38,888 nt of DNA from the UHGV virus genome UHGV-0098678. One strand, 5' to 3'. The position numbers were made by a program, and so were the translations under genes. The stretch comes from a virus. How positions within the stretch are numbered: position 1 is the stretch's first letter; every line of letters starts with the position of its first letter. The notes beneath the pieces are model-generated. The model was not told the DNA's origin. It saw nothing but the letters and a program-made list of their open reading frames with translations, and made no database searches. Of the stretch, positions 32,019 to 37,488 are shown in pieces.

Positions 32019-32819
32019 TTACTTGATAAATCCTGCCGCCTTTCCCCGCCTGTATTCCTCCATCAGCCACTGCGCCGGTGTTATTCCCCCAAGGGTGGCG
32101 GCGTTAGGCATGCACCCGAAACTTCGCCCTGGTGGATGGTAAACGTCTCTCCCTGTGTCCGGAGGCGTACTCATGGGTTCTGGCTTTGCCTGTATGCTGA
32201 TCACCGGATCGGGTATCTGCTGTCCGGAAGCCACCTTTTTCGCCCAATCATCGAGCAGCCTGCGCGCGTGTTTCTCAACCTCTATCTCGCTAAGCTGGCG
32301 CTGATACATTGCACGGCGGGTATCACATACGACCCAGTACATAACCGGATGCCGCCACGGGAATCTTTCGGGACCACCAGGATATAAACTTTTTTCCTTG
32401 CTGTACCGGTGAAACTCCGTCATCACATCGTCAATGGTGACGCCAAGAACCATCTTGCTGTCTTTGCACCACTTGATGAATTGCCCTGGCGACGGCCAGA
32501 ACGGAGATTCACTGGCGCGGGCGTGGCGCATACCAGCAGAAACCTGTTCACGGGTTCGGATCCCCCCTTCGGCAAACGCAGCAATCCACTGCTGTTTTGC
32601 AGCAACTTCCTGCTCTGGCGTCTTCAGGTTGGTTACCACTGCCGCCGGAAACAGTTGTTTCAGCTGTTTGAAAAGGGCATCAACAAGCCTCTCTGCTGAC
32701 ATGTTCACCACGTTGTCATTGTTGGTGTACTGATGCTCATAACCTGACATGCGAGAAAGGGCTTCTCCGTCACGGTTTTGTATCGCGGTAAAAACGTTGT
32801 TCACAAGAAATCCTCCCAT
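32019..32819 (-). CDS. replication protein, lambda P-like (helicase loader)
   Basis: Block QLFPAAVVTNLKTPEQEVAAKQQWIAAFAEGGIRTREQVSAGMRHARASESPFWPSPGQFIKWC aligns with lambda P as recalled (FPASL...RRQWVLAFRENGITTMEQVNAGMRVARRQNRPFLPSPGQFVAWC); start overlaps the O-like gene end. Confidence 0.7.
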   Translation of the reverse strand: MGGFLVNNVFTAIQNRDGEALSRMSGYEHQYTNNDNVVNMSAERLVDALFKQLKQLFPAAVVTNLKTPEQEVAAKQQWIAAFAEGGIRTREQVSAGMRHARASESPFWPSPGQFIKWCKDSKMVLGVTIDDVMTEFHRYSKEKSLYPGGPERFPWRHPVMYWVVCDTRRAMYQRQLSEIEVEKHARRLLDDWAKKVASGQQIPDPVISIQAKPEPMSTPPDTGRDVYHPPGRSFGCMPNAATLGGITPAQWLMEEYRRGKAAGFIK

Positions 32820-33616
32820 GCTTCAGGGCTGTTCCAGTGCGGAACGTTGTTATCAGGTAATGTTGATTGCTTCTGTCTGCTAATCTGCAGCCGCCTTGCC
32901 AGCTTCTGCTCCCACTGTGCCTGATGGTATGCCTTACCCTCAGCCATCCAGTAAATTCTGAACTCTGCAAGTTCCTGTGCCGTTGGCAGACTGTCCAGGT
33001 AGATCCCCTGCAAGGAGCTTTTCCGAAGAAAGTCATCTGATGGCTGCCATTGTTCATGCATGACAAATTTGCCTAATTGCCCTGGCCCACCAGGAGGAAC
33101 AAAGTTATTCATCACGGCGTTGTTTGCGCCGGGGTCATGAGGCACAGAATCCCCGTTTTTTGTCCTGCTCTCCCTCTCTTGGTTAAATGACTGGTTATAT
33201 GACTGGTTCTGGATCCCGTTTTTGGGATCATTCAACATCCCGTTTTTGGGATCATTCAACATCCCGTTTTTGGGTATATTCCCGTTTTCGGTAACATTAC
33301 CGTTTTCGGGTTCATTGCCCCCCTCCCGGTTGCCTTTAATGTTCCCGTTTTTGGTTATATTAAGAGAGAAAACCCGCACTCTTTTCGTCGCTCCCTTTCT
33401 CTCTCCGGTATCTGAAATAAGCCCCATTTTCATGAGCGATATAAGCCCGGCCTGCACGGTTTTTTTATTCAGGCAAGTGTCTTTAACGAGGCGTTCTATG
33501 CTGGGGTAGCAGAGGTTATATTCATCGGCTCTGTCAGCCATCGAGAGCAGTATGAGCTTTAATGACGAGCTACCTGGATCTGTCTCCCAGGCCCAATCTG
33601 TTGCATGTCTGCTCAT
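32801..33616 (-). CDS. replication initiator, lambda O-like (HTH N-terminus, repeat-encoded linker, C-terminal P-interaction-like domain)
   Basis: 271 aa; SD GGAG; N-terminal HTH-like segment (LKLILLSMADRADEYNLCYPSIERLVKD); central Asn/Gly repeats encoded by DNA iterons; positioned directly upstream of the P-like gene. Confidence 0.6.
   Translation of the reverse strand: MSRHATDWAWETDPGSSSLKLILLSMADRADEYNLCYPSIERLVKDTCLNKKTVQAGLISLMKMGLISDTGERKGATKRVRVFSLNITKNGNIKGNREGGNEPENGNVTENGNIPKNGMLNDPKNGMLNDPKNGIQNQSYNQSFNQERESRTKNGDSVPHDPGANNAVMNNFVPPGGPGQLGKFVMHEQWQPSDDFLRKSSLQGIYLDSLPTAQELAEFRIYWMAEGKAYHQAQWEQKLARRLQISRQKQSTLPDNNVPHWNSPEAWEDFL
33213..33354. repeat. iteron array (putative replication origin) inside the O-like gene
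   Basis: Six copies of CCCGTTTT(T/C)GG beginning at 33215, 33239, 33263, 33281, 33300, 33344 (spacing 24, 24, 18, 19, 44 bp), two as perfect 24-bp units ATCCCGTTTTTGGGATCATTCAAC; an additional TGACTGGTT direct repeat at 33188-33208. Confidence 0.6.
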
Positions 33617-33631
33617 GATTAATCTCCGCTA

Positions 33632-33832
33632 TCAGCTTGAATATTGTGGGGAGGAATTAATCATGATCTGCTTAATCTCTGCCCTGATGCGACGGTTTGA
33701 TTCCATGGTGCACTCAACACAGTGTCCGTTGTAAACCCAGCGTTCACTGTCATGTCCGTGCTTACATGGTTTTCCGGTGTAGTAGCGTTTAAGTCCGCGC
33801 TTTGCGGCATCAATACGTGTAATGATTTCCAT
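33632..33832 (-). CDS. hypothetical zinc-ribbon protein (CII-position gene)
   Basis: ATG 33832 (track ORF starts at upstream TTG); 66 aa with CKHGH...HCVEC motif; located between the Cro-like gene and the O-like gene. Confidence 0.4.
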   Translation of the reverse strand: MEIITRIDAAKRGLKRYYTGKPCKHGHDSERWVYNGHCVECTMESNRRIRAEIKQIMINSSPQYSS

Positions 33833-33912
33833 GGTAAGCCCTGTTATTAGTATTTGGATTACGGTTATTTTGTGCTGACACAAAAAAAAGATCAACCAGA
33901 TTTGGTTTTTTA

Positions 33913-33982: not shown

Positions 33983-34213
33983 TCATGAGTAGAAGAAGTA
34001 TGCCAGTTCTGCTTTTGAGCGCAGCCATTGTCTTGTTTTACAGGCTTTAAAAAGCCCATTCATCAATACTTTACCTGGCATTTTGCGCTTACCTGTTAAG
34101 TGAGTCTGGATATAGTGACTCGTCGTTCCGGCTTCCTGTGCGAAGGCTTCACGCTCATCCGGAGTAAGTGCAAGCCAGTGCTTTTTGAAATCGAAATGTC
34201 CGTTATCGCTCAT
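33983..34213 (-). CDS. Cro-like HTH regulator
   Basis: 76 aa, first gene of the - strand early operon divergent from the repressor; HTH-like segment AFAQEAGTTSHYIQTHLTGKRKMPG. Confidence 0.5.
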   Translation of the reverse strand: MSDNGHFDFKKHWLALTPDEREAFAQEAGTTSHYIQTHLTGKRKMPGKVLMNGLFKACKTRQWLRSKAELAYFFYS

Positions 34214-35260: not shown

Positions 35261-35560
35261 ATGAACGTTAATCAGCAGAAAAATCTTCAAAAAATCATGC
35301 TGGCATTCGACAAGGACTACCGCCTGTCAGAACAGCTATATGACCGACAAGTTGAACTGATTGAGAGCATCCGACTTCATCAACTGTCCTCAACTTTCGA
35401 CGTTGTAACAGGCAAAGGCGTTCGTCAGGAAGTACTGGAGGCTGCTAAAGACAGCCCTGAGTTCGAAGAACTGATGGATGCCTATCGGCGAGAGGCAATG
35501 GCAATTATCGCCCGCTGGGATCTGGCGGATCAGCTTGATGGGCAGAGGGACGCGGCATGA
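35261..35560 (+). CDS. hypothetical protein
   Basis: ATG 35261 with SD GGGAGGG (track ORF starts 5 codons earlier); 99 aa, helical; ATGA overlap with the exonuclease gene. Confidence 0.45.
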   Translation: MNVNQQKNLQKIMLAFDKDYRLSEQLYDRQVELIESIRLHQLSSTFDVVTGKGVRQEVLEAAKDSPEFEELMDAYRREAMAIIARWDLADQLDGQRDAA

Positions 35561-36456
35561 TGCGGAACGCTGGAATCATGGATAGAACAAAATACATCGG
35601 AGGAAGCGATGTTGCAGGGATTCTTGGAATTAGCCCATGGCGCACCCCGCTTGAGGTTTATCTGGATAAGGTCCAGCCACGTGTCAAACCAGTAGACCCA
35701 AGCAAGCAGAAAGTTTTCACGCGTGGCCAGCGTATGGAGCCATACGTAATAGACCTGCTTTCTGAGGAAACAGGGATGGAAATCGTTCATCGCGGAAACC
35801 GCTATATCCACCGTGATTACGATTTTATTGCAGCTGAGATCGATGCAGAAGCAGCGTCAGGCGAGAACATTGAGATCAAAACAGTTAGTCCGTTCAAAGC
35901 CAAAGAATGGGGAGAAATCCAGACAGATGCAATTCCTGTGCATTACACGGCCCAGGCCATGCACGGGTTGATGGTTACAAACAAACAGGTATGCGTTTTC
36001 GGTGTGCTTATCGGTGGCGACGACTTCCGAATCTATCGGGTTGAGCGTGATGAAGAAACTATCCAGGCGATCTTAGAAAAAGAAATCGCTTTCTGGGACC
36101 GAGTGAAAAATCTTAACCCGCCGGAAGCTACCAGCGTAAGCGATGTATCGCTGATGTTTGAGAAAGATGCCGGGACAAGTATCGAGGCTGACGGAAAGGC
36201 ACTCGCACTATTCAACAATCTACGAGACATGAAATCACGCAGAAAATCACTGGAAGAAGAAATAGCTATATCAGAAGAGAAGCTGAAGATGTACATGCAA
36301 GAGCACTCAGTCCTGACCCTGGACGGAAAGCCGCTCTGCACATGGAAATCTCAGATCAGCAACAGATTCGACCAGAAGCTATTCCAGTCAGTACACCCTG
36401 AGTTATTCGAAAAATTCAAAACAACAACGACACAACGCGTCTTCAGAATGAAGTAA
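35557..36456 (+). CDS. YqaJ-like viral recombinase-associated exonuclease
   Basis: N-terminal YIGGSDVAGILGISPWRTPLEVY matches the YqaJ/lambda-Exo-like nuclease start; paired with a downstream RecT gene. Confidence 0.75.
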   Translation: MMRNAGIMDRTKYIGGSDVAGILGISPWRTPLEVYLDKVQPRVKPVDPSKQKVFTRGQRMEPYVIDLLSEETGMEIVHRGNRYIHRDYDFIAAEIDAEAASGENIEIKTVSPFKAKEWGEIQTDAIPVHYTAQAMHGLMVTNKQVCVFGVLIGGDDFRIYRVERDEETIQAILEKEIAFWDRVKNLNPPEATSVSDVSLMFEKDAGTSIEADGKALALFNNLRDMKSRRKSLEEEIAISEEKLKMYMQEHSVLTLDGKPLCTWKSQISNRFDQKLFQSVHPELFEKFKTTTTQRVFRMK

Positions 36457-36465
36457 GGAGAAAAA

Positions 36466-37488
36466 ATGTCTATCAATGCACTTAAGGCAGCGGCTACCGG
36501 TAACCAAGTTGCACATCATAATGAGAAACCAACAACTCTGGCCGGACTTCTGGCAGACCCAAAAATTAAAGCTCAGATGGCTTTGGCACTTCCAAAGCAC
36601 ATGACAGCAGACCGTCTGGCGCGCATAGCAACCACAGAGATCAGAAAGGTTCCAAAACTTGCATCATGCGACCAAGCCAGCTTCCTGGGGGCAATTATGC
36701 AATGTGCCCAATTGGGTCTTGAACCAGGCGGAGCTCTTGGACACGCTTACCTGATACCGTTCGACAAACGCCAGAAAGTAAATGGAAGATGGGAAACCGT
36801 ATCTACAGAAGCACAGCTGATTATCGGCTATCGCGGAATGATTGACCTTGCCCGCCGCTCTGGGCAGATCCTGAGTATCTCGGCTCGTACCGTACATACA
36901 AACGACAAATTCAGCTACTCATACGGCCTGGAAGAAACGCTCGAGCATTTACCTTGCGAAACAGGTGACAGCGGAGAATTAACGCACGTTTACGCCGTTG
37001 CACGACTGAAAGATGGCGGAGTCCAATTTGAAGTTATGAGCCGGGCAGACGTTGAGAAAGTTCGTGCACTGAGCAAAGCCGGTAGCAGTGGCCCATGGGT
37101 TGATCACTTCGATGAGATGGCTAAAAAAACAGTAATTCGCCGACTGTTCAAATATCTTCCTGTTTCTATTGAAATGCAGAAGGCTGTTGTTATGGATGAG
37201 CGCGCTGAAGCTGGACTTAGCCAAGATAACGCAGCTGTTATCACTGGTGAATATTCCGTAGTTGACGATGAGCGTCAACACCTGTCGCCAATTTCAGATT
37301 CAGAACGAGAAGAAGCTCGAGAATATATCATCGCGATACTTAATAGCCTGGATCCATCTGCTGAAGATGCAAAAACGATGTTCAAGCGCGCTGAAAATGA
37401 AATTAACACCATGGCTGAAAAGCTCGGTGATGAATATCACCAAAAATTCATGATGACGCTTAACGATATGCGTCCAGAATTCGAGTAA
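36466..37488 (+). CDS. recT: RecT-family single-strand annealing protein
   Basis: 340 aa; strong SD TAAGGAG; conserved RecT-like core (...LIIGYRGMIDLARRSGQ...VYAVARLKDGG...KKTVIRRLFKYLP...). Confidence 0.8.
   Translation: MSINALKAAATGNQVAHHNEKPTTLAGLLADPKIKAQMALALPKHMTADRLARIATTEIRKVPKLASCDQASFLGAIMQCAQLGLEPGGALGHAYLIPFDKRQKVNGRWETVSTEAQLIIGYRGMIDLARRSGQILSISARTVHTNDKFSYSYGLEETLEHLPCETGDSGELTHVYAVARLKDGGVQFEVMSRADVEKVRALSKAGSSGPWVDHFDEMAKKTVIRRLFKYLPVSIEMQKAVVMDERAEAGLSQDNAAVITGEYSVVDDERQHLSPISDSEREEAREYIIAILNSLDPSAEDAKTMFKRAENEINTMAEKLGDEYHQKFMMTLNDMRPEFE

Follow-up and report, generated by a model that had tools for sequence, protein, structure and literature searches.

A probable iteron-type replication origin inside the initiator gene of a phiV10-like Escherichia coli phage

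In bacteriophage lambda, the replication origin lies midway along the initiator gene, where the regions coding for the N- and C-domains of the O protein meet. It comprises four dyad-symmetric iterons of 18–19 bp (annotated as ATCCCTCAAAACGAGGGA) with a TCCC...AAAAC...GGGA core, followed by an AT-rich unwinding region that is also purine-asymmetric (PMC5043065); the gene of the P-family helicase loader comes next, and transcription from an early promoter crosses the region. While lambda has four iterons, six are found in Shiga-toxin (Stx) phages (PMC7466680). In phi80, the annotated gp15-binding sites (TTCCCGAAAACGGGAA) likewise lie inside the initiator gene (gene 15), with a P-family gene (gene 14) following. 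In addition, a domesticated O/P-like protein pair, DopC/DopE, has been described in Cellvibrionales and Oceanospirillales (Brezellec et al. 2017, PMC5509034). Here, we analyse a 38,888-bp stretch of viral DNA (UHGV virus genome UHGV-0098678; hereafter "the window", meaning this stretch at its full length), derived from a phiV10-like (Uetakevirus, epsilon15-like) E. coli phage, in which an array of short repeats at positions 33213–33357 lies within the coding region of a replication initiator, between its N- and C-domains. We consider it highly probable (about 0.85) that this array is the initiator-binding (iteron) part of a phage replication origin contained in the initiator gene, as in lambda and phi80. 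This reading is based on the non-random clustering of the sites, their family-wide placement, their occurrence in mixed reading frames, their dyad symmetry, a phi80/lambda-like core, the modular make-up of the initiator of phage GF-2, and the presence of a P-family partner gene; moreover, DopC/DopE, which has the same architecture but does not coincide with an origin, is reported to be without iterons (PMC5509034).

The motif CCCGTTTTYGG was counted over the full window, allowing at most one mismatch, with 100 shuffles as a control. Nine matches were obtained versus 1.18 ± 1.07 by chance (shuffle maximum 4, n = 100), and seven of the nine fall within about 200 bp (33152–33354). Five cores are exact and a sixth, ACCGTTTTCGG, deviates at one position (Table 1); these six, including two perfect 24-bp units, span 33213–33357 with spacings of 24, 24, 18, 18, and 45 bp (repeat search). 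A tandem-repeat finder (TRF) search, which a preliminary description of this DNA had proposed as a check, returned a 24-bp unit × 2.6 at 33213–33274 (100% identity, score 124), an 18-bp unit × 3.1 at 33262–33316 and, beside the iteron arrays, a 12-bp unit × 2.4 at 33180–33208. Together with the motif count, this bears out the six repeats with two perfect 24-bp units that the same description had placed here. On the sense strand, the sites occur in three forms (ATCCCAAAAACGGGAT, TACCGAAAACGGGAA, and ACCCGAAAACGGTAA) and are dyad-symmetric over 14–16 bp, reading ATCCC-AAAAAC-GGGAT. Terminator-like hairpins between neighbouring iterons on the plus strand showed no excess over chance.

The repeats lie within the open reading frame (ORF) 33616..32801 on the minus strand, the strand having been left unstated in the preliminary description, between the folded N-domain and the DnaT-like domain. 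Their translation is Asn/Gly-rich, as had been claimed (NITKNGNIKGNREGGNEPENGNVTENGNIPKNGMLNDPKNGMLNDPKNGIQNQ; in the order TKNGN...PENGN..TENGN..PKNGMLNDPKNGMLNDPKNGIQNQ). Since all copies share one reading frame, the window alone cannot separate conservation of the DNA from conservation of the peptide.

When genomes were scanned with each species represented once, 80 loci coding for the window-type N-domain were obtained, which together with the window and four phages gave a diverse set of 85 loci; an array was called where at least four copies of a 10-mer directly follow the N-domain. Such arrays, of 4–10 sites, are found at the matching place in 64 of the 85 loci versus 2–3 in control segments, and in 55 of these 64 the copies occur in more than one reading frame, typically at a spacing of 17 or 22 bp; therefore, it is the DNA that is conserved and not the peptide. 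The generic pattern NNNCC[AG]A[ACT]ANNGGNNN averages 3.60 occurrences per locus in the sense orientation, compared with 0.25 in antisense and 0.03 in each control segment. Among the relatives, a change in one flanking arm goes along with a change in the other (ATCCC/GGGAT, GTACC/GGTAC, GTCCC/GGGAC, CCCCC/GGGGG), and 61% of the sites show complementarity between positions −3 and +3 versus 36% expected; as judged from these comparative patterns, selection acts on the dyad-symmetric DNA site and not on the peptide. Loci below the threshold mostly have 3–6 looser copies, and among these sub-threshold N-domain loci, iteron copies are missing only from truncated ORFs and two divergent proteins.

Tandem repeats with related but distinct cores occur at the matching position in the N-domain-sharing phages GF-2 (ATCCCAAAATTGGGAT), Vibrio phage H20 (CCCGAAAACGGTAC), AP22, and PPompW; window-type repeats are absent from SPN1S and Tyrion, which share the C-domain only. 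The latter two are Uetakeviruses that possess a DnaT-like C-domain, but their N-domains are unrelated and the repeats inside their genes are of another kind (GGATCAGG × 3 in Tyrion, a GAAGA-rich run in SPN1S). As SPN1S has no P-like gene after its initiator, the DnaT-like domain is not strictly bound to a P partner. In the 80 genome loci, the cassette of N-domain and repeats is combined with a DnaT-like C-domain and a P-like gene in 6 cases and with other C-domains and a P-like gene in 9; a DnaB-like helicase is its neighbour in 2, and further types are found among the rest.

The repeat core of the window (ACCCGAAAACGGTAA, TACCGAAAACGGGAA, ATCCCAAAAACGGGAT) nearly matches the phi80 iteron core, and both arrays reside inside an initiator gene with a P-family gene next to it; phi80 differs in having four iterons, 20–22 bp apart, and a gp15 whose N-domain belongs to Phage_rep_O (6e-25). 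With lambda, the window shares the mid-gene position at the N/C junction, dyad-symmetric iterons of the core type given above, a purine-asymmetric region downstream, the adjoining P-family loader gene, and, presumably, transcription from an early promoter. It differs from lambda in that the iterons are 14–16 bp long, six in number and all in one frame, that the 40-bp AT-rich block is lacking, and that the N-domain is of the HTH_36 and not the Phage_rep_O type, with a C-domain that is DnaT-like and not of the lambda-O type. The most instructive relative is GF-2: in its initiator, the N-domain and repeats of the window type are fused to a C-half that has 62% identity with lambda O (E = 2e-67), and lambda P comes next. 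By this composition GF-2 is a natural chimera, and it follows that the N-domain plus repeats fill the exact slot of the lambda O N-domain plus ori. The arrangement of the lambda origin and the probable origin function, both put forward in the preliminary description, are thus supported by the arrays of the relatives, the mixed frames, the phi80/lambda-like core, and the GF-2 chimera.

The initiator matches Pfam HTH_36 (PF13730) over amino acids (aa) 18–67 (1.8e-10, 40.9 bits versus a cutoff of 25), Pfam DnaT (PF17948) over aa 184–252 (1.1e-15, 57.5 bits versus a cutoff of 25), and PHROG 1032 "replication initiation protein" (1.2e-108). In the AlphaFold model, aa 1–89 are folded, and the repeat-encoded aa 90–145 are unstructured, with a predicted local distance difference test (pLDDT) score of ~40, in agreement with the suggestion that the repeats occupy the linker-coding part of the gene. 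Foldseek relates the N-domain to phage helix-turn-helix (HTH) and "replication protein O" models; against the PDB, the hits are generic MarR, Fur, and plasmid Rep winged helices, all at E > 0.008, and the list includes the plasmid Rep–DNA complex 5kbj. The N-terminal winged-helix domain is presumed to be the iteron reader. The C-domain (aa 180–265) matches the E. coli DnaT chains 9zbt_D, 6aep_A, 4ou6_A, and 2ru8_A (E = 7e-21 to 3e-19; phmmer, PDB). The following gene encodes, as anticipated, a P-like helicase loader, matching PF06992 over its full length (1.5e-56, 191.1 bits, profile positions 2–162 of 162) and PHROG 109 "P-like helicase loader" (4.3e-92). The coordinates of these features are compiled in Table 1.

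Table 1. Features of the initiator gene, the repeat array, and adjoining elements in the window.
Feature	Coordinates	Strand	Remarks
Iteron 6 (first in gene order)	33342..33357	−	TTCCCGTTTTTGGTTA on plus strand; exact core 33344 (motif count); repeat family D1; meets the end of the region coding for the N-domain
Iteron 5	33297..33312	−	TTACCGTTTTCGGGTT; 18-bp spacing class; 1-mismatch core 33299 (motif count); within the TRF 18-bp array
Iteron 4	33279..33294	−	TTCCCGTTTTCGGTAA; exact core 33281 (motif count); sense-strand core CCGAAAACGG identical in phi80 iterons
Iteron 3	33261..33276	−	ATCCCGTTTTTGGGTA; exact core 33263; TRF, motif count, repeat search
Iteron 2	33237..33252	−	ATCCCGTTTTTGGGAT; exact core 33239 (motif count); dyad arms ATCCC/GGGAT; in perfect 24-bp unit
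Iteron 1 (last in gene order)	33213..33228	−	ATCCCGTTTTTGGGAT; exact core 33215 (motif count); in perfect 24-bp unit; stretch nearly invariant among 49 alleles
Degenerate seventh iteron-like copy	33152..33162	−	CCCGTTTTTTG; 1 mismatch; just outside the range of the preliminary description
Second repeat class, three units, 12-bp period	33180..33212	−	Sense: AGAACCAGTCAT / ATAACCAGTCAT / TTAACCA; TRF 12-bp × 2.4; candidate element resembling a DNA unwinding element (DUE)
Polypurine (sense)/polypyrimidine (plus strand) tract	33150..33180	−	90% pyrimidine on plus strand; immediately past the 12-bp repeats
Replication initiator gene, 271 aa	32801..33616	−	HTH_36 winged-helix N-domain, disordered linker, DnaT-like C-domain
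Winged-helix N-domain coding region (aa 1–89)	33350..33616	−	AlphaFold pLDDT 82–96, H-H-H-H + beta-hairpin wing; Foldseek
DnaT-like C-domain coding region (aa 180–265)	32822..33079	−	phmmer versus PDB; PF17948
Lambda-P-family helicase loader gene	32019..32819	−	Pfam Phage_lambda_P (PF06992); PHROG 109; next gene, 19-nucleotide overlap with initiator stop

The designation of the initiator as "O-like" holds for its architecture and its probable role, but not for its family. It is an HTH_36 plus DnaT protein in which PF04492 (Phage_rep_O) found no match at E ≤ 0.01 (lambda O, 5.7e-36; phi80 gp15, as above), and BLASTP revealed no similarity of the window protein to phi80 gp15 or to lambda O, including the C-half of the latter, where GF-2 differs. 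Distant homology of the N-domain with lambda O is plausible because HHpred assigns the lambda O N-terminus to HTH_36 (Brezellec et al. 2017, PMC5509034).

The same architecture, i.e., an HTH_36 N-domain and a DnaT C-domain in one protein followed by a lambda-P-family protein, is common to DopC/DopE and the window. However, DopC, compared here by its description only, is chromosomal, reported to be without iterons and not coincident with a replication origin (PMC5509034), whereas the window phage keeps a full array. Iteron plasmids (RepA, pi, TrfA) share with the window the use of winged-helix initiators on direct-repeat iterons beside 13-mer-type unwinding repeats (PMC5043065); unlike in the window, their iterons are usually found outside the rep gene, and both a P-type loader and a DnaT-like domain are lacking. 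The layout itself is classical, following the lambda plan, and the window is the phage form of the HTH_36 + DnaT_C/P-like architecture with its iterons intact. E. coli DnaT, a primosome protein of replication restart, is homologous to the C-domain of the window protein (E ~7e-21 to PDB chains). DnaT has no origin-binding winged helix, and the place where it works together with PriA, PriB, and PriC is the stalled fork and not an origin.

Variation was followed in a population sample made up of the best 80 matches in viral-contig scans, which are near-identical relatives only. Among 79 of them, the iteron number ranges from 4 to 9 (mode 6, in 63/79), always in frame, while perfect 24-bp units vary between 1 and 5 and 12-bp units between 1 and 3; phiV10 has one 12-bp unit more than the window. 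This parallels the difference of four versus six iterons between lambda and Stx phages (PMC7466680). At the DNA level, the initiator gene is 96.6–99.4% identical with that of phiV10, EC.W1-9, phiv142-3, and PAS61. The degenerate seventh copy at 33152 was rejected as a functional iteron, as it is not conserved among near-identical phages: its TKNG becomes TKSG, TKTG or TKTRG in many of these relatives, and it is situated in a polymorphism hotspot with 10 polymorphic sites in gene nucleotides (nt) 451–480. It is probably not functional, to judge from this pattern.

The AT-richer stretch that had been proposed to adjoin the array is present in a modest form (GC 0.425 at 33160–33219 versus 0.482 for the whole window) but remains weak, considering that the AT content past the last iteron is 0.54 versus 0.53 upstream and that, in a ranking of the window by instability, the least stable 40-mer near the array comes only within the top 2.1% and its 60-mer counterpart only within the top 9.5%. 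Family-wide, the average AT content past the last iteron shows a modest rise (0.608 versus 0.567, p = 0.005). As candidates for the unwinding region, the 12-bp repeats and the polypurine tract are to be preferred over this stretch. The 12-bp repeat region is nearly invariant, with one polymorphic site in gene nt 391–450 among 49 distinct alleles. Across the family, 28 of 59 distinct loci have, behind the last iteron, a triple GAAYC-type repeat with a period of 10–13 bp (control tiles, 1 of 5822), and a double repeat is found in 83% of the loci versus 0.57% of the control tiles; the copies occur in more than one frame in 22 of the 28 loci with a triple repeat. Beyond the 12-bp repeats, the 33150–33180 tract exceeds every other 31-mer of the window in purine/pyrimidine asymmetry, and its position corresponds to that of the strand-asymmetric unwinding region of lambda. 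Among near-identical phages, it is a hotspot of nucleotide and amino-acid polymorphism. Another polypurine tract, at 33373–33412, was rejected as an origin element; it encodes the conserved DTGERKG wing motif.

Several points weigh against an origin at this site. Within the window alone, all copies are in a single frame and code for a linker predicted to be disordered, which would be compatible with peptide-level selection. A strong AT-rich unwinding element, or classical DUE, was not found next to the array, and DnaA boxes are absent, although lambda needs none either. The contrast between cores and spacers in the 49 distinct 816-nt alleles is borderline (Fisher p = 0.051), with polymorphic positions numbering 3/66 in cores and 11/74 in spacers and pi values of 0.003 versus 0.032. 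Comparison of the N-domain with those of lambda and phi80 by hhalign gave a probability of 26% and covered the HTH helices only; with BLASTP negative and no profile match, filing the initiator in the lambda O family (PF04492) was rejected. Finally, a paper mapping the origin of this phage group, or embedded iterons in this initiator family, was not found in the literature searched. The shared frame and the disordered linker could also be taken to mean that the repeats merely encode a low-complexity linker of PKNGMLND units that is prone to slippage, the DNA as such having no role, and the free change of the unit number among near-identical phages would fit with that. We regard such an explanation as very improbable, given that the relatives carry an identical DNA motif in two or three frames (55/64), that this motif is dyad-symmetric with co-varying arms and about 100-fold enriched in one orientation only, and that it nearly matches the iterons of phi80 and lambda, which are established initiator-binding sites.

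It is conceivable, though unlikely, that the sites bind the initiator mainly for autoregulation or titration in the sense of copy control, with opening and helicase loading taking place at another locus. Plasmid iterons also serve handcuffing and autorepression, no pronounced AT-rich element adjoins the array, and the window has its least stable DNA near position 400. What argues against this is the second conserved repeat class, which together with an A/purine-rich tract follows the last iteron family-wide, where lambda has its unwinding region; furthermore, the GF-2 chimera has its array in the exact position of lambda ori, and the window is devoid of a second iteron cluster, the two isolated 1-mismatch matches elsewhere being at chance level. 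Hardly any weight, in turn, is given to the repeats being read by another factor (a host protein, a repressor, or Dam/SeqA via GATC sites) or serving as a recombination junction for module exchange. Three GATC sites within 33212–33253 do tie the window maximum per 60 bp, and the array does sit at the boundary of N- and C-module shuffling; however, the repeat sequence follows the lineage of the N-domain and not that of the host or the C-domain, and GATC is a by-product of the GGGATC arm that is absent from the iterons of most relatives. An iteron array in a replication origin stays our preferred reading.

By analogy with lambda biochemistry, binding, unwinding, and helicase loading by the window system could proceed as follows. 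Early leftward transcription would lead to synthesis of the initiator, dimers of which would bind the six dyad-symmetric sites via their N-terminal winged helices, distort the DNA, and form an O-some-like complex. The stress would open the neighbouring stretch, where three AACCAGTCAT-type repeats of 12 bp (33180–33212) and the polypurine tract (33150–33180) likely constitute the unwinding region. The DnaT-like C-domain would then hold single-stranded DNA and/or dock the P-like protein, and the latter would deliver the host DnaB. Tentatively, and with rather more doubt than confidence, the two or three GAAYC-type repeats (12–13 bp period) behind the last iteron and the A/purine-rich tract after them may be a dedicated unwinding element that the initiator, perhaps via the DnaT-like C-domain where present, would recognise as single strands, by analogy with the 13-mers of oriC. 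If this were true, the winged-helix domain, the iterons, and the unwinding element would make up one portable origin cassette, joined in the loci studied to at least four C-domain/partner types: DnaT-like plus P, lambda-O-C plus P, one with a DnaB-like helicase following, and others.

The present analysis provides a well-supported origin assignment for phiV10/Uetakevirus-type phages of E. coli O157, a group that finds use in typing and as reporter phages. The assignment extends to a broad set of HTH_36 prophage initiators, including "Eru" replication types of Stx phages; replication by the HTH_36 "Eru" modules of Stx phages has been described as uncharacterised (PMC8951638). It also shows that the lambda/phi80 iteron core is common to initiators whose connection with lambda O is not seen in sequence searches. 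The general understanding of phage replication is unchanged by the finding.

With regard to the surroundings of the array, the three GATC (Dam) sites at 33212, 33226, and 33250 lie within 42 bp, equalling the top density per 60 bp in the window; they are products of the GGGATC arms of the iterons. An influence of Dam/SeqA on the origin is possible; the iterons of most relatives are without GATC. The least stable DNA of the window, at ~390–470 (e.g., ATTAATACATATGTTGTGATGATGTATTTTTATAAATTAT), is far from the replication genes.

Upstream of the initiator gene, a sigma-70-like promoter (34267–34239, minus strand) precedes a cro-like gene (34213..33983), and between the latter and the replication genes there is a terminator with a strong hairpin (GACCGCCGGGTGGCGGTC, followed by a T-run; 33961–33942, minus strand); the phiV10 record has a terminator annotated at the matching place. 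This layout resembles pR-tR1 of lambda. Since promoter and terminator share the strand of the initiator gene and lie upstream of it, the array would be crossed by early transcription, as happens with that from lambda pR. A perfect 11-nt inverted repeat (TCATGATTAAT / ATTAATCATGA) in 33613–33666 (minus strand) corresponds to an mRNA hairpin of −17.2 kcal/mol (z = −2.4) that hides the Shine-Dalgarno sequence and the AUG of the initiator, and the upstream ORF 33895..33632 stops 15 nt before this AUG. Hairpin and ORF end together suggest translational coupling or control of initiator synthesis.

Concerning database records, the proteins matching the N-domain (P0001–P0036) are almost all fragments of 47–143 aa; it may be that gene calls or assemblies are frequently broken within the repeat array or directly behind it. 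A phiV10-type replication block, 96.6–98.8% identical to the window, is contained in PP488543.1 ("BP9", a 138-kb Vequintavirus), where it is found near the end of the record, and in PP350014.1 (PH444, 115 kb); both blocks may represent chimeric assembly or contamination and not real gene content. Elsewhere in the window, at 35557–37488 (plus strand), an exonuclease-like ORF (299 aa) and a RecT-like ORF (340 aa) are separate, whereas in phiV10 one fused RecE-RecT protein is annotated in their place.

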